A DNA stretch of 64,000 bases from Anaerolineaceae bacterium (lineage in GTDB: Bacteria > Chloroflexota > Anaerolineae > Anaerolineales > Anaerolineaceae), in the NCBI GenBank assembly GCA_040769645.1, contig JAXGKP010000002.1, positions 10,754-74,753 of the forward strand. Reading direction: 5' to 3'. Each line of letters opens with the position of its first letter. The stretch's first letter is position 1. The translations under genes were made by a program, and so were the position numbers. Below are positions 18,198 to 56,310 of the stretch, piece after piece. The notes below the pieces were generated by a model. It ran no database searches. It was not told where the DNA came from and saw only the letters and a program-made list of their open reading frames with translations.

Positions 18198-19343
18198 TCA
18201 GGGGCGAACCAAACCCTTGGTGCTGACACCACTGAACTCAGACAGGTTCTCGATGGAGTCATACATCAACTGTAACGCGTATCTCGCGTTGTGAATGTAC
18301 GCAGCCGGATCCTTGGTAACGAACATCAGGTTGTAAGCCGCTTTGAGCATGCGGGGGGTGAAGGCTTTGAACTGATTCATGTATGCGGCTTCTTCTTCGC
18401 TAATGGTTCCGTCACCGTTCGTGTCAATGAAGGCGTATGGGTAGGCCATGGGGTTGAAGCCGAAGGTCGCGCCGGATTTGGCGGTGGAGTAGCCTGCGAG
18501 CGCTTTAACCAGAATGGCTTTCATGCCTTCGATTTCATCGTAGGTGCTCTCCACGGTCCCGTCACCGTCGTAGTCAACCTTTGCCAAAGAGATTTTCTTG
18601 TAATCCTGGTAGCTCTTGACATCGGAATGGCAGGTTGAGCACAGGTTGGCATCGCTGCCGGGGATTTTCTGCGTGTGCAGGCTGTGGGGGTCGTGGCATT
18701 CCGTGCAGGAATTCACAGGTTCGGCGTGCTTGAATGTACCAACATAGGATTTGCCTGGATATTGGAAGCCCATGCCGCCGTCAGCCCCAGCCATGGTAGC
18801 GGCCGCAGCCAAATAATGGTCAGCCATCATTTCCTGATCGGGCATGACATCATCTTCAGCCACACCCTTGACGGCATCGGTTACGTCCTTAGAAGAACCC
18901 AGACCGCTGTGGCAGGTGGCGCAAATCGCGCTCTTGCCAAGACCGGTCAATTGTTTTCCGTTGCCCAGGGTGGCGGCGTCCAGTTTATCTGCCGCATCGT
19001 TATGACATGCCGCGCAATTAATCGGATCCATCACCTTACCGGGCGCGTCAACTTTTCCAGCCTCGGAGCCATCGGCGCCCAGATAATCCCGGAAACCGGT
19101 GGTGCTGTGGCATTTTGCGCAGTACGTGGGGATTTCCTTAGGGTCTTCCGTGTTCCAATGATTAAAGGCATACGAGGACGCATCAGCATGTGCCGAACCA
19201 GCCCATTTCGCAGAAAAAGCATTCAGCTCCGCGGTAATTTCTTCAGCTGGTTCTTCAACTGCTGCTTTGGTAGTGCATCCGACCCAGGCGACCAGGGCCA
19301 ACGCGACTACGGCCAACAAAACGAACAACGTGCTCTTTTTCAT
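18198..19343 (-). CDS. pentahaem c-type cytochrome lipoprotein with EF-hand-like Ca-binding loops
   Basis: Signal/lipobox LVAWVGC. Five CxxCH motifs (CAKCH, CAACH, CATCH, CTECH, CSTCH). DTNGDGTISEEE is a canonical EF-hand loop, and DYDGDGTVES is a second, weaker one. Confidence 0.85.
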   Translation of the reverse strand: MKKSTLFVLLAVVALALVAWVGCTTKAAVEEPAEEITAELNAFSAKWAGSAHADASSYAFNHWNTEDPKEIPTYCAKCHSTTGFRDYLGADGSEAGKVDAPGKVMDPINCAACHNDAADKLDAATLGNGKQLTGLGKSAICATCHSGLGSSKDVTDAVKGVAEDDVMPDQEMMADHYLAAAATMAGADGGMGFQYPGKSYVGTFKHAEPVNSCTECHDPHSLHTQKIPGSDANLCSTCHSDVKSYQDYKKISLAKVDYDGDGTVESTYDEIEGMKAILVKALAGYSTAKSGATFGFNPMAYPYAFIDTNGDGTISEEEAAYMNQFKAFTPRMLKAAYNLMFVTKDPAAYIHNARYALQLMYDSIENLSEFSGVSTKGLVRP

Positions 19344-19611: not shown

Positions 19612-20322
19612 TCATTCTCCCCAGTCGTAATCGCTGTCTACGGCAGCCATTTGTTGATTGAGTTCCTCCTGCTGTGCCATCAAGCGGGCTCGCTGCAGCA
19701 GCAGAGCAATGTATAAGACCGTAAACGCCGCCAAGGATATAAAAAGCGTAGCCACCATTTGCGGGTTGAGGTTCATCTCAGTTTCACCACCTCCAAAGAC
19801 CACCGGATGAATCGTGCGCAGCAAACGGGCGGAGAAAAAAGTAAGCGGCACGCTGATAAATCCAATAATTGCGTATACAGCGCTGAAACGGGCTCGTCGA
19901 GCCGGGTTGTCCACTCCCCTGCGCAGCAGAATGAACGCGATGTAGGTGAAAGCCATGATCGTGACCGTGGTCAGACGCGGGTCCCAGGTCCACCAGGTAT
20001 TCCAGATAGGACGCGCCCAAATCATCCCGCTAAGAATGCAAATAATGGTAAACAACAGCCCGACCTCCACGCTTGCCGCGGTCAGGGTATCCCACTTCAG
20101 ATCCTTCCGCGAGAGGTACAGGATGCCAAACGCCGCTGCCGCGAGAAATGCCAGCATTCCCACCCAGGCAGCGCTCATGTGGAAGTAAAAGACTTTCTGG
20201 ACCAGACCCATGGTTTGTTCTACCGGCGTGAAAAAAAGCACCCGAACGAACGCAAACAGGACCAGCGCAAATGCCAGAATTGAAAGGTACGACAAGAATT
20301 TATTCCTGGATGACATATTCAA
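19612..20322 (-). CDS. ccmC: haem exporter/haem lyase subunit CcmC
   Basis: WWD motif WNTWWTWDPRLT, polytopic, 236 aa. Confidence 0.88.
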   Translation of the reverse strand: MNMSSRNKFLSYLSILAFALVLFAFVRVLFFTPVEQTMGLVQKVFYFHMSAAWVGMLAFLAAAAFGILYLSRKDLKWDTLTAASVEVGLLFTIICILSGMIWARPIWNTWWTWDPRLTTVTIMAFTYIAFILLRRGVDNPARRARFSAVYAIIGFISVPLTFFSARLLRTIHPVVFGGGETEMNLNPQMVATLFISLAAFTVLYIALLLQRARLMAQQEELNQQMAAVDSDYDWGE

Positions 20323-20974
20323 ACACCATGATTGACAGCATAGTAACTACGGCGTCATATACCAACAGCAGGTTGAGCCAGCCGTTGATATCCTGCCCGG
20401 CTACGGAGCCAAGCAGCACACCACAGGATTTTACCACTGCCATATTAACCGGCAGCAGCAGCGGGAAAAGCAGGACGGGTAAAAGCAGGTCCCGCATGCG
20501 GGTTTGTACGGTCATGCTGGAGATAAGGGTGCCAGCCGCGCTGTAACCCCAGGCACCCAAAGCCAGCACGCCAAAAAACGCCCAGTTAAACAGAGACTGA
20601 TTATAGAGAATGGAATAGATCGGGATGACGAGCACAGCCAAAAAGACCATCATCAAAAGGTTGGTGAGCAGCTTCGCGAAATAAATCGCGGAAAGATCCG
20701 GCACCGCCATGATGAGCCCTTCAAAGCAGCCTTGGTCCTGTTCGGCGGTAAAGGAGCGGTTCAAACCGAGCGTGCCCGCGAATACCATCACCACCCACAC
20801 GATTCCGGGGGCAATTTCCGACCGGTTTATCGGCGAAAGCTCCAGCGCGTAATTAAAGATGAACAGCGAGAGCACCGCGAACGCCAACATGGAAGTGAGG
20901 ATATCGCGGCTGCGCCACTCCTGGAGCAAATCTTTCCAGACCAAAACGCGCACGGAGTGAAGCCAGGCTTTCAT
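20300..20974 (-). CDS. ccmB: haem exporter permease CcmB
   Basis: 224-aa six-helix membrane protein between ccmA and ccmC, with overlapping stop/start codons on both sides. Confidence 0.8.
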   Translation of the reverse strand: MKAWLHSVRVLVWKDLLQEWRSRDILTSMLAFAVLSLFIFNYALELSPINRSEIAPGIVWVVMVFAGTLGLNRSFTAEQDQGCFEGLIMAVPDLSAIYFAKLLTNLLMMVFLAVLVIPIYSILYNQSLFNWAFFGVLALGAWGYSAAGTLISSMTVQTRMRDLLLPVLLFPLLLPVNMAVVKSCGVLLGSVAGQDINGWLNLLLVYDAVVTMLSIMVFEYVIQE

Positions 20975-21699
20975 AACCGCTCCATCAGGGGCTTTTTTTC
21001 AGCGCCAAGCGCCGTGCTGTATTGTTCCTGCAAAGCGTCCAGGCTGACCCCGGCGTTTGGAAACTCAGCGGCAATCCTGCCGTGATGCAGGATAGCAAAG
21101 CGCGTGGCAATCTGACGGATGAAACTCAGTTCGTGCGTGGTCAGCAGAATCAATTTGTTGCGGGCGCTTTCTTCCTGTATCAACTGGTTCAACATACCGC
21201 AGCCCTGTTGGTCGAGCCCGGTATAGGGCTCATCGAACAAGAGAATTTGCGGGTCACATAAGAGCGCCCGCGCGATGGTCAGGCGCTGTTTCATCCCGCG
21301 TGAAAAGGCGCGGACCGGAATCGGGCGGGTTTTTCCCAACCCGACCCTGCTCATGAGCCTGTGTAAATCCCCCTCGTCGAGCGCAGTTTCGTAAAGACGG
21401 GAATAGAAGCGCAGATTCTCCATTCCGGTCAGGTGCTCATATAAGAATGGTTGGTGCAAGATTATTCCAATGTTTCGGCGCAATTTCAGAATGTTTTCGT
21501 CCTCCGCTTCAACGCCGAATAGTACCTTGCCGCTGTCTGGTTTCTGCAGCCCGCTGAGCGTACGGATGAGGGTGGTTTTCCCGGCTCCGTTTGGACCCAA
21601 AAGGCAAACAACCTCCCCCGCGTCAATGGACAGGTCCAGCCTATCCAAAACGCGCTGCGCGCCGTACGCTTTAGAGACCTGCCGCGCTTGTAGTCTCAA
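20971..21699 (-). CDS. ccmA: haem exporter ATPase CcmA
   Basis: ABC ATPase with GPNGAGKTT, FSRGMKQRLTIA and LLFDEP. Confidence 0.8.
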   Translation of the reverse strand: MRLQARQVSKAYGAQRVLDRLDLSIDAGEVVCLLGPNGAGKTTLIRTLSGLQKPDSGKVLFGVEAEDENILKLRRNIGIILHQPFLYEHLTGMENLRFYSRLYETALDEGDLHRLMSRVGLGKTRPIPVRAFSRGMKQRLTIARALLCDPQILLFDEPYTGLDQQGCGMLNQLIQEESARNKLILLTTHELSFIRQIATRFAILHHGRIAAEFPNAGVSLDALQEQYSTALGAEKKPLMERL

Positions 21700-23710
21700 G
21701 AGTATCCTCCATCAGCCGTGTTTCCTCATCCTGATCCCCGCGTTTGCCGGGCAATGTGACAGCCAGCGCGCCGCCCAAGGTCATGAAAACCCCGCCAATC
21801 CACATTAAGTTGACCAGAGGGTTATCGGACAGGCGCAAAGTTATATAAGGAACATCAATGTCGTAGCCAGCCAACAGAGTATAGACATCTCCCTGCAGGG
21901 TGGCACGCGCGTCTGGGATGGTGATGTACTGTTGGCGGTCCGGATAGATGTGCTGCGCCGGGCTCAGGCGCGCGATTTCTTTACCGTCTTTATAGAGAAT
22001 CGTTTCAGCCTTGACGGTCTTGTACTCGGGATTTTCATAACTTTCGTTCACGGAGACAAACTCAATCTCGTAGCCGCGCAGGGGCATCTTTTCCCCGGGC
22101 AGCATAGTTCCCTCAATACTGGCCGAGAGATTTCCCATCCCGATAACCCCAAGGGCAATCAGAAGTATGCCGGCATGAACCAGCCAGGCGCCGTAGCGCG
22201 CGCGCTGATTCCACCAGAGGTTCGGAAAACGCTTTAAACCAACCGCTTTCGCATCCAGTGCGGTCAGGTAAATCAATGTGGTCAACCCCAGGATGACGAT
22301 AAAAACCCCTCCAAGCGCCCAAACCTGACGCACGCCGCTCAGGAAGACCGCCAATAGGCCCAGCCCGCCGGCGCTCAGTGGAATCCAAAACTTTTTTCCG
22401 AATTGCTTGAGTCTGGCAGCATTCCAACCCACCAGGGGGCAAACCGCCATCAGAACCACCAGCAGCGCGAAAAGCGGCGTGGTGCTGCGGTCATAAAATC
22501 CTCGATGCAGGGTCATCTCAACCCCGGATAGCGCGCCTTTAGCCATTGGGTAGAGCAGCCCCCACAGACAAATCAGTACAAGCGCGATCAGGATAATGTT
22601 GGTATAGAGAAATAAGGCTTCCCGACTGAAAGCCGAACCAAATTTCCACTCGCGGTCGAGCGCTTTCCAGCGCCACACCAACAAAATAGTCGAGCCAATT
22701 AACAGAATCAGCAAAAAGCCGAGCAGAGGGAGAGCGATACTGCTTTCTCCAAACGCGTGCACCGAGCTGACCAAACCCGACCTTGTGACAAAAATGCTGA
22801 AGACAACCAACAAATAGCTTAGCAGAACGAGCAGCAAATTAAAGCGTTGGAATATTTTTTGCCGCCTTTCCAACAGTAAGCTGTGCAGCAGCGCGGTGCT
22901 GGAAAGCCAGGGCAGCAGCGAGGCGGTTTCGACGGGGTCCCAGGCCCAATACCCGCCCCACCCCAATACATCATAAGACCACCAACTGCCCAGGACAATC
23001 CCGGCGCCAAGGAAGACCCAGGCGCCCAAGAGCCAGGCGCGGGATTGGTCCAGAAGCTGATCACCCTCAACGCCGCGGATGAGCCCAGAGATGCCTAAGG
23101 CAAATGGGACCAGATAGAGAGCGTAACCGATATAGAGCAGCGGTGGATGGATGACCATGCCGGGATGCCGCAGCAAAGGATTCAGGCCCATACCATTGTT
23201 AAGTTTTTCAACAAGCGCGCCCACCCCAGGCGCGAACAGACTTGTAGTCAGGCTGCCATCAGCCAGCGTCCAAATGCGGGTAAAAGGGTTGTCTGCCACG
23301 AGAGATAACCCGAGAAACAGGATTTGGTTTAAATTAACGACAAGAAAAGACCAATTATCCAGCAAAGGTTTCTTACCGGAAAGCGCCAAAAAGGCGCATA
23401 ATGAGACTATCCAACTCCAGAAGAATAGTGAGCCGGTCTGCCCGCCCCACAGGGCTGTAAGTTTGAGGATCCACGGCATCGCCGGGTTGATAACCGAGAC
23501 GACATGCATATTGGTGTAATCTTGTGTTACCTGCATGATCATCAGAGTAAGCAGCGCGGCGCTGTGAGTAAAGAAACCTAGTTTGGTCAGCAAAACAGCC
23601 GCGCCAGGCAGCCGGGTTTGTTTGCGAATTAGGGCAACAATCACCAAAACCAGCGCCACAGCGCTGGCAGCCATGGCGAAAGAAGACGTCAGAAAACCAA
23701 GATAGAACAT
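21671..23710 (-). CDS. ccmF: cytochrome c haem lyase subunit CcmF
   Basis: 679 aa, polytopic, WWD motif WGGYWAWDPVETASLLPW. Confidence 0.9.
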   Translation of the reverse strand: MFYLGFLTSSFAMAASAVALVLVIVALIRKQTRLPGAAVLLTKLGFFTHSAALLTLMIMQVTQDYTNMHVVSVINPAMPWILKLTALWGGQTGSLFFWSWIVSLCAFLALSGKKPLLDNWSFLVVNLNQILFLGLSLVADNPFTRIWTLADGSLTTSLFAPGVGALVEKLNNGMGLNPLLRHPGMVIHPPLLYIGYALYLVPFALGISGLIRGVEGDQLLDQSRAWLLGAWVFLGAGIVLGSWWSYDVLGWGGYWAWDPVETASLLPWLSSTALLHSLLLERRQKIFQRFNLLLVLLSYLLVVFSIFVTRSGLVSSVHAFGESSIALPLLGFLLILLIGSTILLVWRWKALDREWKFGSAFSREALFLYTNIILIALVLICLWGLLYPMAKGALSGVEMTLHRGFYDRSTTPLFALLVVLMAVCPLVGWNAARLKQFGKKFWIPLSAGGLGLLAVFLSGVRQVWALGGVFIVILGLTTLIYLTALDAKAVGLKRFPNLWWNQRARYGAWLVHAGILLIALGVIGMGNLSASIEGTMLPGEKMPLRGYEIEFVSVNESYENPEYKTVKAETILYKDGKEIARLSPAQHIYPDRQQYITIPDARATLQGDVYTLLAGYDIDVPYITLRLSDNPLVNLMWIGGVFMTLGGALAVTLPGKRGDQDEETRLMEDTLETTSAAGL

Positions 23711-23732
23711 AGAGGGTGCCTCGGGGTTTGCG

Positions 23733-24218
23733 TTAGTTGGGCTTATCGGGCAAATCAGCTTCGTATTTTGATGGACATTTCAGGAGCAGTTCGCTCACCT
23801 GAAAAACGCCATTTTTGTCCAGGGCGCCGGTCATAATCGCCTGGGCTTCGTCTTTCAGAAGGTCGGGCCGGGGTCCTTTGTAATGCACGGTCATCTTTGG
23901 CAGGTTTGGGTCATGCGCAGCCTGCGCGAGCACTACCGACATCCCACCCATTGCTTTAATGAGCTTGTGGTCACCCGGAATCTGGGCGACTTCAAAGCTA
24001 AGGTCCAACGTTTTTGGGTCATAAGAAATCGTATCGCCCAGCACAACCCCGGAAACGCGAAGGTTTTTTCCGACGAGTTCGGCTTGACCGGATTTCAGTT
24101 CCTCAACCGTCATAAAGTATTGCGACTGTGACAAAGTGGAACTGATAACAAGGTATAAGAGCGCAGCTGTAATCACCACAATGCCAATGATAAGCTTAAT
24201 ATTTTTCTTTGTTTTCAA
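23733..24218 (-). CDS. ccmE: haem chaperone CcmE, variant with Cys in place of the haem-binding His (CxxxY)
   Basis: The ORF track extends to 24383, but a TTG at 24218 preceded by GAGGTG gives MKTKKNIKLIIGIVVITAALLYLV (membrane anchor) plus an OB-fold region (NLRVSGVVLGDTISYD). The C-terminal motif is LLLKCPSKYEAD, with the CPSKY codons at 23763-23777. Confidence 0.8.
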   Translation of the reverse strand: MKTKKNIKLIIGIVVITAALLYLVISSTLSQSQYFMTVEELKSGQAELVGKNLRVSGVVLGDTISYDPKTLDLSFEVAQIPGDHKLIKAMGGMSVVLAQAAHDPNLPKMTVHYKGPRPDLLKDEAQAIMTGALDKNGVFQVSELLLKCPSKYEADLPDKPN

Positions 24219-24383
24219 GTAATTTAACACCTCAAATAAAATGGGCTTTATTGTAGTTGATATTATACATTTATGGGTGTCAACCCATATCCGTGTAGAC
24301 CTCTGAAAACAGTTCCGCGGCCCGCCCTTGCCCATTGAAGGCGGCGCTGGAACGCGCCCCAGGTCAAATCGCTTTTCGCGCAA

Positions 24384-30570: not shown

Positions 30571-31641
30571 ATGAATTACGCAGTCATTATGGCTGGCGGC
30601 GCTGGAACCCGTCTTTGGCCAATCTCCCGGGAGCGATTGCCAAAGCCCGCGCTTCGCCTTTACAGCGATGAGAGCATGTTTCAGATTGCCGTGAAAAGGC
30701 TCTCGCCTTTGTTTACACCTCAACAGGTTATCGTGGTGGCTGGCGCCGGGCATACTGCCGTCCTCTCAGAACAAGTCCCTGAGATCCCGCCGGAAAACTT
30801 CATCGTGGAACCGGAAGGGCGCGGCACCGCTTCTGCGATCGCCTTGACAGCTGTCCATCTGGCGGCACGCGACCCGGAAGCGACTATGGCAGTTTTAACC
30901 GCAGACCACTTTATCGGCAACGAGGTCGTCTTTCGCGAAGCCGTCGCTGCCGCTCTGACTGCTGCGGAAGATGACTGCCTGGTGACGTTAGGGATCACCC
31001 CGGAATTTCCTTCCACCGAGTACGGCTACATTCAACAAGGCCAGGTGCTTCGGGAGATCGCGGGCCATAAAGTTTTGGAAGCGCTGCGCTTTGTGGAAAA
31101 ACCAGACTTGGAACGCGCCAAAGAAATGCTCCAGTCTGGTGATTACTCATGGAACAGCGGGATGTTTATTTGGAAGGTCAGCGTTATCCTGGACGAATTT
31201 TCGCGCCAGATGCCCGAGCTGTTCGATCAGATTACTTGTATCGGCAGGGCAGTCAATACGCACGCTTACGCTGTCACCCTGGGGGAAACCTGGCCAAAAA
31301 TCCGCAAACAAACCATTGATTACGGCATTATGGAAGGGGCGCGCAAGGTGGTTGTTATTCCCGTCGCGATGCAGTGGACGGATGTGGGTAACTGGAACAG
31401 CCTGAAAGCGCTTCTACCGGAGGACGCACGGGGAAACACCATCCGGGGAGATGCGTTCTTGCTCGACTGTGATGGATCGCTCATTGTCGGCGCTCAAAAA
31501 CTGATCGCGGGTGTGGGCTTGGAAGATCTGATTGTGGTGGATACCCCAGACGCGCTTCTCGTCTGCCGCAAAGACCGAGTTCAGGACGTCCGAAAAATCG
31601 CGGATACTTTGAAAGCAGCCGGGCGGCTGGATTTAATTTAA
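30571..31641 (+). CDS. manC: mannose-1-phosphate guanylyltransferase (GDP-mannose pyrophosphorylase)
   Basis: MNYAVIMAGGAGTRLWPISRE..., 356 aa, GGAGG RBS. Confidence 0.85.
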   Translation: MNYAVIMAGGAGTRLWPISRERLPKPALRLYSDESMFQIAVKRLSPLFTPQQVIVVAGAGHTAVLSEQVPEIPPENFIVEPEGRGTASAIALTAVHLAARDPEATMAVLTADHFIGNEVVFREAVAAALTAAEDDCLVTLGITPEFPSTEYGYIQQGQVLREIAGHKVLEALRFVEKPDLERAKEMLQSGDYSWNSGMFIWKVSVILDEFSRQMPELFDQITCIGRAVNTHAYAVTLGETWPKIRKQTIDYGIMEGARKVVVIPVAMQWTDVGNWNSLKALLPEDARGNTIRGDAFLLDCDGSLIVGAQKLIAGVGLEDLIVVDTPDALLVCRKDRVQDVRKIADTLKAAGRLDLI

Positions 31642-31647
31642 TTATCT

Positions 31648-31675
31648 AGCCGGCGGGGCGAAACGGCTGGTTTTT
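31648..31675 (+). terminator. weak terminator after manC
   Basis: AGCCG...CGGCT stem followed by GGTTTTT. Confidence 0.35.
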
Positions 31676-31879
31676 GATCTCACACTGTCTTTTCAGCAGG
31701 ATGCCGGATAGGAAAGCAGCCGCGGCAAGTCCCACAGACCATCAGCCGAAAATAATCCGCGCGGGTTGTTGAACTAACAGACCTAAACCCCGGGCATGTT
31801 CACGAAATGCCGCACAAGTGTGTACGTTAGCTTTCTTTTCAAACCTGAATATGTAAAAATTCCGCCAGTGAGAGGTAAA

Positions 31880-32344
31880 ATGCGGATACCAAATAAGCAA
31901 CTGAATAGAAAGAACAGCGCGCTGCCGGTGGTATTGTTTCTGTTTGCGGCGCTCATCAGCCTGGGGGTATTGGTTTATCGGGGCGCGCGTGCTCTCGGCG
32001 GCAACCCGATAGTTAAATCGCAGGATGACGTTCCCCGCCTGACTGTTCAGGAAGCGTATCAAGCTGTCCGGGATGGAAAAGCGATACTGGTAGACACGCG
32101 TTCCGCTGAACAATACGCGGCGCAGCACGCGGCCGGCGCGATCAGCCTGCCGGTCTCCAACCTGGAGGCTAATCTCCCGGCTTTAGACCCAGAGCAGTGG
32201 TATATAACCTACTGCACCTGACCGGCTGAAAATACGAGCGCCCGTGCGGCGTTCCTGATGCTGCAAGCAGGTTTTTCCAAAGTCAACCCGATAAAAGGCG
32301 GCTTTGAAGCCTGGATAAATGCCGGCTATCCTACCGAACCATAG
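31880..32344 (+). CDS. membrane-anchored rhodanese-domain protein interrupted by an in-frame TGA at the catalytic Cys position (candidate selenoprotein or very recent pseudogene)
   Basis: The ORF track stops at TGA 32219-32221 (...WYITYCT*). The same frame continues for 40 codons (PAENTSARAAFLMLQAGFSKVNPIKGGFEAWINAGYPTEP) to TAG 32342-32344, which completes the rhodanese fold. The likely start is MRIPNKQ at 31880. Confidence 0.55.
32236..32254 (+). promoter_or_regulatory. hairpin 14 nt downstream of the in-frame TGA (possible bacterial SECIS-like element)
   Basis: GAGCGCC-CGUGC-GGCGUUC, a 7-bp stem including one G-U pair, with G at loop position 2. Confidence 0.25.
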
Positions 32345-32469
32345 GACCGCGTCGCAATCAGTTGAGCCTGTTGTGTAATCCTTTTCGCCCTGGATAACAA
32401 GCTGCTCTGATGTAATTTGCATCAGGGCATTATAAAATCGGGAAATCACCCCTGAAGGCACAACGGAGC

Positions 32470-33200
32470 ATGGATATGAAACGCAGGGCGCGAAGAATTA
32501 CGGCTTTCATTAGTTTCCTTCTATTTCCAATTACCCTGAATTTCTTTTCTTCTTATGTCAGGATTGACGGCGCGTTGAACGGGATTATCTAGGGCAGCCT
32601 GATCGTCTTCCTGATCATGTTTTTGACCGGTTTGTTTTTAGGACGTGCCGGTGTTCATATGTTTGTCTGTGGGCGGCGCCCTCGGAATATCTTCAAGCAG
32701 TCAATAACCGGCCCGTAAATCGCAAACACCTGGCAGTCCTTCGCTATGCGATCTTTGGTTTCTGGTTTGGGGCTGTGATTGTCTCGTTTCTCCTGGCAGG
32801 CGGGATTCGCGGCATTAATCCGCTTCACCTGACTGAGACAGGCGTTTCTGTGGACGTCCCGCTTAAGTATATAACCTATTACATGGTTGTCCTCCTGCTT
32901 TTCTTACTGACCTGGTTGATCGGCAGACGGGGCGCTTGCCATGCCATATGTTGGATGTCACCCTTTCTCGTTGCGGGTACCTGGCTTGGCCGGAAGCTGC
33001 GCATGCCGCAGTTTAAGGTGTATTCAGAGACTGAAAAATGTATCGCTTGCGGTAAATGCACGCGCGATTGCCCGATGAGTATTGATGTAGAGCAGGAACA
33101 AAAGGCAGGCTTGGTGGCAAGTTTTGATTGCATTCTCTGCGGTAATTGCGTGGATGTATGCCCGAAAGACGTTCTAAAAATCAAAGCAAGCCGACACTAA
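32470..33200 (+). pseudogene. decayed membrane-bound 4Fe-4S-binding protein gene (NapH/polyferredoxin-like)
   Basis: MKRRARRITAFISFLLFPITLNFFSSYVRIDGALNGII runs into TAG at 32590-32592. The reading frame then shifts at least once before the intact tail (ORF 32775..33200), which carries CIACGKCTRDCP and CILCGNCVDVCP. Confidence 0.6.
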
Positions 33201-33255
33201 GGGCAGGCTCTCTAAGCTGCCGGCCGCTTTCTGACTTCTCATTAATCGAGATTAG

Positions 33256-33310
33256 CTTAAAAACACTGCACCCCCTCGTTCGGTTTTGATGCCGACTTTG
33301 GGGGTGCAGT
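33256..33310 (-). terminator. terminator after glnA
   Basis: ACTGCACCCCC...GGGGGTGCAGT (11-bp stem with an internally paired loop), followed on the minus strand by GTTTTTAAGC. Confidence 0.6.
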
Positions 33311-33338
33311 TGGTTAGGCGAACTTTATATCAGGCTGA

Positions 33339-34757
33339 TTAGCAGTCGTAATAAGTTTCAATCTCAAACGGGCTGGGACGCTGATTAACCTGGTCTGCCT
33401 CTTTTCTTTTGGCATTAACCCAGGTTCGAATCAGAGTCTCGTCAAAAATCCCAGATTCCGTGAGGAAAGAAGCACCGTTTTCCAGAGCGCTCATGGCCGC
33501 ATCCACCGAGGTAGGAAGAGACTTAATCGTTGCCCGCCGCTCTTCAGACCAATCAAAGATATTGTCGTAAATCGGTCCAAAGCCCGCTTCGGTCGGATCG
33601 ATGCCTGCCTGGATACCAGCCAGCCCAGCCATCAGCATGGCTGCCATAGAAAGGTAGGCGTTGCCGGTGGCATCGGGTGGCCGAAATTCCATCCGGACTG
33701 CATCAGGGGCGGTGGCATATTTCGGGATACGGATGGCCGCGCTGCGGTTGGCAACGGAAAAAATGGCTTTGATTGGCGCTTCGAAGCCGGGCACCAACCG
33801 GCGGTATGAGTTGGGGCTGGGGTTGGTGAAGGCCATCACCGCCGGGGCGTGCGTGAGCAGCCCTCCGATATACCGCAAGGCAGTCTGGCTGAGCAATGAC
33901 AAGCCGTCAGGGTCATAAAACTGGTTTACGCCGTTTTTGGTCAGCATCTGATGATAGTGCGTGCTGCTGCCAGCCAACCCGTAAATCGGCTTGGGAAGGA
34001 ATGTGGCGGTTTTTCCTGCGCGCATGGCTATCATCTTGACGACGTACTTCACAAGCAATGCAGTATCCCCCGCCTCGGTTATGCCCAGCAAAGGCGTTTC
34101 AATTTCGGATTGTCCGGGACCGCCAACTTCGTGATGATGGTATTTGACGGGGACACCGAGTTTTTCGAGGGTGACGACGATTTCGTCCCGGATTTGGTAG
34201 TAGTTATCGCAGGGTGGTGCGGCTTGATAGGCCTGATTATCCGGAAGGGAGTAACCATTGGGATTGATGAAGGTGCCCCAGTTTGCCTCCCCAGAGTCTA
34301 TCTGACACAAGGTGTATGCGGGACTGTTTTTCAGGGTAATCCGGTCAAAGATATAGAACTCAAACTCCGGACCCCACAGCGATTTATCCGCGATGCCGCT
34401 TGAAATCAGCTTTTGTTCAGCTCGGCGGGCAATTTCGCGCGGGTCAAACAGATATAGCTCCTTGGTATCTGCCTCATATACGCTGCACAGGCAGGCAAGG
34501 GTGGGCTGGCTGTGGAAAGGGTCCACAAAGGCTGTACCCAGGTCAGGGATAAGCACCATATCGCCGGCATTCACGTGTTTGAACCCCACGCTGGAACCGT
34601 CAAAGCCGACGCCTTCTGTCATCGCTTCCTGAGTGAATTCTCTGGATGTCAGGGTGACGTGGTGCAGGTTCCCCCACAGGTCGCAGTACAGCAAGTCAAT
34701 CAATTCGATGTGTTGTGCGCGGACAAAATCGCGCGCTTCTTTGAATGAAGAAAACAT
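33339..34757 (-). CDS. glnA: glutamine synthetase, type I
   Basis: 472 aa with GS-I beta-grasp and catalytic-domain motifs (GFDGSSVGF, PEFEFYIF, KYHHHEVGGPGQSEIE, NSYRRLVPGFEAP). GAGGAG RBS. Confidence 0.9.
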   Translation of the reverse strand: MFSSFKEARDFVRAQHIELIDLLYCDLWGNLHHVTLTSREFTQEAMTEGVGFDGSSVGFKHVNAGDMVLIPDLGTAFVDPFHSQPTLACLCSVYEADTKELYLFDPREIARRAEQKLISSGIADKSLWGPEFEFYIFDRITLKNSPAYTLCQIDSGEANWGTFINPNGYSLPDNQAYQAAPPCDNYYQIRDEIVVTLEKLGVPVKYHHHEVGGPGQSEIETPLLGITEAGDTALLVKYVVKMIAMRAGKTATFLPKPIYGLAGSSTHYHQMLTKNGVNQFYDPDGLSLLSQTALRYIGGLLTHAPAVMAFTNPSPNSYRRLVPGFEAPIKAIFSVANRSAAIRIPKYATAPDAVRMEFRPPDATGNAYLSMAAMLMAGLAGIQAGIDPTEAGFGPIYDNIFDWSEERRATIKSLPTSVDAAMSALENGASFLTESGIFDETLIRTWVNAKRKEADQVNQRPSPFEIETYYDC

Positions 34758-55842: not shown

Positions 55843-56310
55843 ATGATGCAAAGAGGACCCTCAGTGAATACCAGGAAACACACCCCAAAACCCCGTCGCA
55901 CAAAAACCCCTGCCTGGGCGTGGCTTTTAGTGGTCGCGGCTGCCGCGCTGCTGGTATATTTTTTAATTCCACAAGGGTACGCCAGCAGCCAGAAATTGAA
56001 GCGGGAGCTGAGCCCGGCAGAAGTCATGGCGCTGCGGGAGGGGGGCGCGTTTATTGTGGATGTGCGTGAACAGAGTGAATGGGAGCAAGGGCATATCGAA
56101 GGCGCAGCGCTGATTCCCCTTGGTCAGCTTTTACAGCGCTCGGGCGAACTGCCCACAGACCGGACGATCGTGGTGGTCTGCCGCTCCGGGAACCGCAGCG
56201 CGCAGGGCAGGGATATTCTGGAAACAGCAGGCTTTAAGACTGTCAGCTCCATGCGCGGCGGGATGAAAGCTTGGCAGGCGCAAGGTTACCCGGTGGTCAC
56301 AGGGCCATAA
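55843..56310 (+). CDS. membrane-anchored rhodanese-domain sulfurtransferase
   Basis: TM helix AWAWLLVVAAAALLVYFL, then a rhodanese domain with an intact active-site loop VVVCRSGNRSAQ and GGMKAWQAQGYP. The start may instead be the downstream GTG (AGAGGA RBS). Confidence 0.8.
   Translation: MMQRGPSVNTRKHTPKPRRTKTPAWAWLLVVAAAALLVYFLIPQGYASSQKLKRELSPAEVMALREGGAFIVDVREQSEWEQGHIEGAALIPLGQLLQRSGELPTDRTIVVVCRSGNRSAQGRDILETAGFKTVSSMRGGMKAWQAQGYPVVTGP

Follow-up and report, generated by a model that had tools for sequence, protein, structure and literature searches.

A conserved in-frame TGA at the active site of an Anaerolineaceae membrane-anchored rhodanese most likely encodes selenocysteine

The 64,000-nucleotide stretch of an Anaerolineaceae genome analysed here (contig JAXGKP010000002.1, henceforth the window) carries at positions 31880-32344 a rhodanese gene whose frame is interrupted by a TGA at the codon aligned with the catalytic residue of this fold. 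We conclude that this TGA is almost certainly no defect and most likely encodes selenocysteine (Sec), and, judging from comparative sequence analysis, we put at roughly 0.9 the probability that 31880-32344 is one intact 154-codon gene for a membrane-anchored rhodanese with Sec at its active site. The parts of the gene are as follows.

31870-31875, forward strand: Shine-Dalgarno-like GAGAGG, 4 nt 5' of the ATG, read from the sequence
31880-32218, forward strand: first part of the coding sequence, codons 1-113, with a Lys/Arg-rich N-terminus, a hydrophobic segment and the N-terminal two-thirds of the rhodanese domain
31919-31978, forward strand: residues 14-33, ALPVVLFLFAALISLGVLVY, transmembrane anchor or signal-peptide h-region, read from the sequence
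32213-32215, forward strand: TGC codon of Cys112, the partner in a C-x-U motif, two residues before codon 114
32219-32221, forward strand: in-frame TGA, proposed Sec codon 114, at the rhodanese catalytic position
32222-32344, forward strand: second part of the coding sequence, codons 115-154, the remainder of the rhodanese fold, with the true stop TAG (32342-32344)
32236-32254, forward strand: hairpin of the bacterial selenocysteine insertion sequence (bSECIS) type, with a 7-bp stem and the apical loop CGUGC at 32243-32247, supported by folding and comparative data

The frame opened by the ATG at 31880 yields 113 codons ending in ...QWYITYCT before it meets the TGA and, as the original prediction had noted for this ...WYITYCT-TGA end of the annotated open reading frame (ORF), it stays open beyond: reading on adds 40 codons, PAENTSARAAFLMLQAGFSKVNPIKGGFEAWINAGYPTEP, before the TAG, with stretches such as AAFLMLQAGFSK and GGFEAWINAGYPTEP C-terminal of codon 114. 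With the TGA entered as Cys, the Pfam rhodanese model PF00581 matched residues 55-147 (model positions 1-101 of 102) at 53.6 bits against a cutoff of 22.2. Since this match runs straight across the TGA, the two halves make up one domain, and the stretch behind the TGA is, as had been proposed, the rest of the rhodanese fold. A start at 31796 was considered and rejected: orthologues begin at an aligned Met, with stops just upstream, so 31880 is the conserved start. A scan of 31600-32520 for promoters and terminators returned nothing exceeding shuffle expectation.

The interrupting codon is a fixed feature of the family. A protein search with the read-through product recovered 18 relatives. As called in public genomes, 16 of them are about 110-141 residues long and 50-98% identical, and all 16 end in ...YCT. 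One further relative (P0008, 114 residues) diverges just ahead of ...YCT, and another (P0009, from an Anaerolineaceae metagenome-assembled genome, MAG) is a full-length protein of 153 residues that reads ...WYITYSTCPNEENSARAAF..., with Cys at the TGA column. At the DNA level, our species set comprised the window and 12 loci (L001-L012), with one representative genome per species, drawn from Anaerolineaceae MAGs, Brevefilum spp. and one Chloroflexota MAG and encoding proteins 48-78% identical to the window protein. TGA stands at codon 114 in all 13, and the downstream frame aligns without gaps over 40 codons, each of the 12 orthologues ending in ...GYPxEP and then a stop. The true terminator varies within this set (TAG in four, TAA in five, TGA in four), while the internal TGA is fixed in 13 of 13. 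Metagenome contigs add lineages down to 36-41% protein identity (L048-L050), all with TGA, and in the hairpin alignment described below the TGA is invariant across 38 distinct Sec-form sequences. The original prediction had proposed looking among orthologues for TGC or TGT at this column and for decay behind the TGA. The column holds TGA, and no Cys codon, in the whole species set and in the 38 distinct sequences, and neither a frameshift nor an extra stop follows it.

The codon two positions upstream is conserved as well: all 13 orthologues have TGC or TGT (Cys112) there, the Cys-form P0009 has Ser and L048 has TGA. This last locus, a single soil or sediment contig, reads TAT TGA ACG TGA CCG (Y-U-T-U-P) at 658-666, with TGA at both positions, and may represent a double-Sec (U-x-U) variant or an error. 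Six database proteins show Trp at codon 114, and in five of them the DNA has TGA (L074, L076-L079). L075 carries a genuine TGG at the Sec/Cys column (520-522) and has kept the downstream hairpin; either a recent mutation of TGA to TGG or an error in sequencing may account for it.

Substitution rates tell the same on both sides of the TGA. Among the six closest genomes the ratio of non-synonymous to synonymous substitution rates (dN/dS) is 0.084 for 66 codons before the TGA versus 0.085 for codons +11 to +40 after it, and across all 13 genomes the corresponding values are 0.11 and 0.15. By this measure the segment after the TGA is under the same purifying selection as the segment before it and is predicted to be translated.

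Folding reproduced the hairpin that had been pointed out at 32236-32254, 14 nt past the TGA: GAGCGCC-CGUGC-GGCGUUC, a 7-bp stem that is the minimum-free-energy structure of the stretch at -10 kcal/mol and whose apical loop begins 21 nt past the UGA. The published bSECIS consensus has an apical loop of 3-9 nt, an upper stem of 4-16 bp and a UGA-to-loop distance of 16-37 nt (PMC13188914, Fig. 2), together with a G as the first or second loop nucleotide, G or U being the usual next base, and an energy of at most -7.5 kcal/mol (PMC13188914). The window hairpin agrees with this model on every count (loop of 5 nt, stem of 7 bp, 21 nt, G at position 2 followed by U, -10 kcal/mol), so that the comparison with a SECIS model that the original prediction had called for came out in its favour, and evidence of constraint at the RNA level adds to it. 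The hairpin is the consensus structure obtained with RNAalifold. Its codons (AGC GCC CGT GCG GCG, for Ser-Ala-Arg-Ala-Ala) are each 4- to 6-fold degenerate, and mean synonymous entropy in these five is 0.08 bits, versus 1.18 upstream and 1.26 downstream at conserved residues elsewhere. That the hairpin codons are almost frozen at synonymous sites points to a constraint on RNA rather than on protein.

Across the 38 sequences, standard pairs fill 92.5% of the cells of the stem; sliding the partner strand by 1-3 columns lowers this to 32-53%. The basal pair (27:45) is GC in 13 sequences, CG in seven, AU in four, UG in two and GU in one; pair 29:43 switches between G-U and G-C; and at 30:42 L074 has U-A where the other 37 sequences have C-G. 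Compensatory changes thus occur at 27:45 and 30:42, the core pairs 30:42 to 33:39 being near-invariant, and the loop follows the pattern C/G-G-[U/G]-G-N throughout the family. The Cys-form locus L015, with TGT at this codon, has a less stable hairpin (-6.2 kcal/mol) and another base in place of the loop U (CGCGC). In the mechanism that we propose, the UGA at 32219-32221 would be read as selenocysteine, with the mRNA hairpin recruiting SelB with Sec-tRNA(Sec) as in the canonical bacterial SECIS mechanism.

Components of this machinery are encoded by relatives. In L011, part of a 1.97-Mb Brevefilum contig that carries an orthologue, ARAGORN finds a tRNA-Sec (anticodon TCA) at a distance of 8.6 kb from the rhodanese gene, and Rfam model RF01852 recognises it at 68.2 bits (gathering score 47); a six-frame translation of the last 1.4 kb showed no sel genes beside it. 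Tandem repeats adjoin this tRNA-Sec gene (about 19100-19500 of L011), with the same peptide-like strings recurring in translation, and could form a repeat array. In SelD, Cys17 is catalytically essential, and Sec occupies that position in some other bacteria. L015, an Anaerolineaceae locus partly syntenic with the window that has a Cys-form rhodanese, encodes SelD (396-1457; 344.7 bits on TIGR00476, cutoff 125). The public gene call begins 99 nt downstream of the true start and misses an in-frame TGA that falls on Cys17 when aligned to E. coli SelD (structure 3u0o). A Sec-containing SelD implies that this lineage actively decodes Sec. In L015, 9.5 kb separate SelD from the Cys-form rhodanese, and between them are genes for a CoA-disulfide-reductase/rhodanese/TusA/DsrE fusion, MTHFR and a xanthine-dehydrogenase-like molybdoenzyme.

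Which residue of the product would be catalytic was judged from alignments to structures and to a paralogue in the window:

55843-56310, forward strand: Cys-containing rhodanese paralogue with VVVCRSGNRSA and an N-terminal hydrophobic segment, used as comparison sequence

Alignments to GlpE (1gmx), 6mxv and domain 2 of 1yt8 all place codon 114 on the catalytic Cys, which in GlpE we take to be Cys65. This placement preserves the standard six-residue loop (U-PAENT-S, versus C-RSGNR-S in the paralogue). P0009 keeps a Cys at column 114 only, as S-T-C (TGT in L015), and P0026 and P0028 have C-T-C at the active site, so that the Sec/Cys pairing at a catalytic residue on which the original prediction was built is borne out by three homologues with Cys at this column. 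More broadly, Y-C-x-[C/W]-P-x-E occurs in 36 of 64 full-length single-domain representatives, listed as 30 with C-x-C, one with S-x-C (P0009) and six with 'W', and these relatives have Cys or Sec at the second position in all cases except the true-Trp L075. From the structure alignments, the six-residue loop, the S-T-C form and this retention of Cys or Sec, we conclude that Sec114 is the predicted primary nucleophile and Cys112 its conserved vicinal partner. The single catalytic residue first proposed thus stands as regards Sec at the catalytic position, and gives way to a Cys112-x-Sec114 pair as regards the make-up of the site. In the loop that follows, U-P-x-E-x-[TS]-S (here U-P-A-E-N-T-S), the Glu is invariant and there is no basic residue.

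A number of observations weigh against the selenoprotein reading. BLASTP against the paralogue puts the paralogue Cys on Cys112, with a 2-residue gap, in disagreement with the ungapped alignment of the original prediction, in which the TGA falls on the catalytic Cys; the count behind that alignment was correct, and the structure alignments agree with it. Cys112 as catalytic equivalent at the head of an enlarged loop is judged less likely, since three PDB alignments and the S-T-C form favour column 114. Characterised sulfurtransferases of the GlpE/PspE type have a basic or polar loop, C-R-x-G-x-[RK]-[ST]; the window protein has an acidic one (PAENT) that lacks those basic residues, which leaves the chemistry uncertain. 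Its best NCBIfam match, NF041203, scores 71.9 bits against a curated cutoff of 115 (with U entered as C), which places the protein outside that equivalog. As to the hairpin, its basal pair is unpaired in 11 of the 38 sequences, and covariation is modest, with double changes at two pairs only, because the core stem is near-invariant. Fold stability is no better than that of shuffles (z = 0.10 in a 72-nt context, z = -0.63 in a 42-nt context); since its thermodynamic stability in context is unexceptional, comparative data carry the argument for the hairpin. Rfam returned no SECIS or other RNA family, either at gathering thresholds over the whole window or in a permissive scan of 32150-32350, which gave one chance match to a long non-coding RNA (E = 1.9); given the diversity of bacterial SECIS elements, this null is uninformative. 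Finally, no selA, selB, selC or selD was found within the 64-kb window (Pfam on 30 long ORFs, ARAGORN, Rfam, and tblastn with the L015 SelD), and no tRNA was found in it either.

These points leave some room, though little, for a conserved UGA that is decoded otherwise, by near-cognate read-through with Trp or Cys or by termination that yields a functional 113-residue fragment, the hairpin then having another regulatory role. We consider this unlikely. It could draw on the true TGG at codon 114 of L075 and on the fact that the Sec machinery is known from relatives, with no sel genes in the window, but codon 114 pairs with Cys in homologues, the hairpin fits a SelB-type model in its spacing and its G[U/G] loop, and relatives have a tRNA-Sec and a Sec-containing SelD. 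A stop after residue 113 would, moreover, sever the rhodanese fold at the active site, and the remainder is under purifying selection.

Still less probable, and in our view very unlikely, is that the rhodanese gene is a recent pseudogene inactivated by a nonsense mutation from TGC or TGT to TGA, an alternative that the original prediction had itself raised. A single substitution would suffice, and the next gene downstream is truly decayed in this lineage, as had been stated:

32470-33200, forward strand: pseudogene of a NapH/MauN-like polyferredoxin membrane protein, outside the selenoprotein gene

Relative to the intact 243-residue copy in L020 (96.5% identical; its NapH model matches lie below cutoffs only), this gene is interrupted by an in-frame TAG (32590-32592) and has lost 1 nt near 32649. 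L018 and L021 share these defects, and L045 matches the window there at 100% identity, so the lesions are real and no assembly errors. A link between the decayed neighbour and the rhodanese was rejected, however, for the whole segment of about 1 kb is a lineage-specific insertion absent from L001-L005; as the rhodanese gene is conserved in the same lineage, the neighbour's decay is uninformative about it. What contradicts a pseudogene is the same TGA in 38 distinct sequences across separate genera, and 40 codons behind it that evolve at a dN/dS of 0.085-0.15 without a frameshift.

The chance of a sequencing or assembly error at 32221, the other alternative raised at the outset, is negligible: only one base separates the TGA from a Cys codon and the assembly is of the uncultured type, but the same TGA is present in L045, which is 100% identical to the window over 32178-33442, and in L018, L020 and L021, independent assemblies of the window's lineage that are 96-98% identical, and error is excluded on that ground. 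Equally negligible is a genome-wide reassignment of TGA to sense (genetic code 4 or 25), to which the Trp placed at this codon by some public gene callers (P0022 and others) might point, because, among 46 other long ORFs in the window, 17 end in TGA, and read-through beyond each TGA-terminated ORF gives no plausible coding sequence and no convincing further selenoprotein candidate, in a sequence of 53.5% GC in which, besides, the 'W' calls are artefacts of TGA translation (five of six checked in DNA).

Taking the TGA as a Sec codon, the product would be a single-domain rhodanese with an N-terminal anchor or signal, in which Sec114 heads the six-residue loop U-PAENT-S and Cys112 completes a C-x-U motif. 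The Lys/Arg-rich N-terminus (MRIPNKQLNRKNS) is followed by the 20 hydrophobic residues of positions 14-33 and then by A-R-A, a possible cleavage motif, and homologues have an equivalent hydrophobic N-terminus. By the positive-inside rule, the rhodanese domain probably lies outside the cytoplasmic membrane, either anchored or released after cleavage. The protein probably serves in sulfur or selenium transfer or in thiol-type redox chemistry, most likely through a selenenylsulfide/selenol cycle between Cys112 and Sec114 or through a Sec-bound persulfide. The paralogue at 55843-56310 has the canonical CRSGNRS loop and likewise a basic N-terminus followed by a hydrophobic segment; the genome therefore encodes a Cys rhodanese and a Sec rhodanese, both apparently exported or membrane-anchored.

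The surroundings of the gene differ between clades. In that of the window the order is a manC-like gene, the rhodanese gene and a convergent glnA, and in another clade the rhodanese gene adjoins a rubredoxin-reductase-like gene. In 16 Brevefilum-like loci (L006-L009, L011, L029-L031, L036-L039, L046, L070, L071, L073) the Sec-rhodanese gene directly follows, in the same orientation, a copZ-like HMA gene and a gene for a copper-type P-type ATPase (copA) of about 807 residues (TIGR01511, 608 bits against a cutoff of 397), with a gap between copA and the rhodanese gene of about 18-22 nt where measured (L011, L070, L071, L073). This arrangement suggests a copZ-copA-rhodanese operon in Brevefilum-like bacteria, and the adjacency hints at extracytoplasmic handling of thiophilic metals; the linkage is confined to the Brevefilum-like clade and absent from the window. 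Speculatively, and we think it doubtful, the Y-C-x-[C/U]-P-x-E rhodaneses could be an exported class of vicinal thiol/selenol proteins that handle, outside the cell, thiophilic metals (Cu(I), for instance) or sulfane sulfur/selenium and are not classical sulfurtransferases, the Brevefilum-like Sec forms acting as dedicated partners of a CopZ-CopA copper exporter and L048 adding a U-x-U variant. Elsewhere in the window, a cytochrome c maturation cluster (CcmF, CcmE, CcmC-like) adjoins a multihaem cytochrome c gene (19612-24383 and 18198-19343), which is notable for an Anaerolineaceae-type genome and has no conserved synteny with the rhodanese gene.

These findings add a well-supported selenoprotein to Anaerolineaceae and Brevefilum (Chloroflexota), which are common in anaerobic digesters and sediments, and they expose a systematic annotation error: public databases store the family cut at its Sec codon, at least 19 of the best 150 clusters at 50% identity being fragments of about 110 residues that end exactly at ...YCT, and a few entries carry a false Trp. 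New are the lineage, the mis-annotation, the series of C-x-C, S-x-C, C-x-U and possibly U-x-U forms, the predicted extracytoplasmic location and, in a sister clade, the linkage to copZ-copA. The picture of Sec decoding stays as it was, the mechanism being canonical. The Cys-x-Sec rhodanese class has since about 2005 been a purely computational prediction, and experiments on it can now start from the anchor or signal segment, the acidic loop, the residue series and the copZ-copA linkage. We found no paper that links Anaerolineae (Anaerolineaceae, Brevefilum) with a rhodanese selenoprotein.

Among known systems, computational predictions of selenoproteins of the rhodanese type go back to 2004-2005 (PMC1088965), and reviews distinguish several forms of them. 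A CxU rhodanese selenoprotein ('form 3'; NCBIfam NF041203, rhodanese_LYCAU), likewise a computational prediction, is listed in PMC13188914 and PMC9312934. The window protein matches NF041203 at model positions 15-124 of 126, and the Cys-form relatives P0026 and P0028 score 74-78 bits on it. It shares with that family a single rhodanese domain, an active-site Cys-x-Sec (the model's LYCAU corresponding to TYCTU in the window) and a bSECIS element within the gene, whereas the window clade differs in its N-terminal anchor or signal, its loop U-P-x-E-x-[TS]-S, its occurrence in Anaerolineaceae and Brevefilum and its public database entries, which are cut short at about 113 residues. On the motif and on a best match to NF041203 that nonetheless stays under the cutoff, we regard the protein as a homologue of the CxU form that would work in the same way, and class it as a divergent, membrane-anchored Chloroflexota branch of the CxU rhodanese type.

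With GlpE and PspE (1gmx, 2jtq) the window protein has in common the PF00581 fold, the position of codon 114 on the catalytic Cys of GlpE and an active-site loop of equal length; it differs from them in having Sec for Cys, an additional Cys at -2, an acidic PAENT loop (CYHGNSS in GlpE) and a membrane anchor. TsoB, a rhodanese/DsbD fusion-like selenoprotein (NF045694), likewise has Sec in a rhodanese domain tied to membrane thiol chemistry, but the window protein has no DsbD domain and matches it weakly and at the level of the domain (24 bits, where the cutoff is 805). For Sec in partners of heavy-metal P-type ATPases there is a precedent in the HMA-type metal-binding selenoproteins (NF041115, UxxU); the window protein contains no HMA domain. 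The hairpin, finally, resembles the SECIS of the E. coli fdhF type and the bSECIS model in lying within the coding sequence just 3' of the UGA and in having a small loop with G followed by U or G, while it has no sequence similarity to fdhF, its stem is short (5-7 bp) and it is predicted from sequence.

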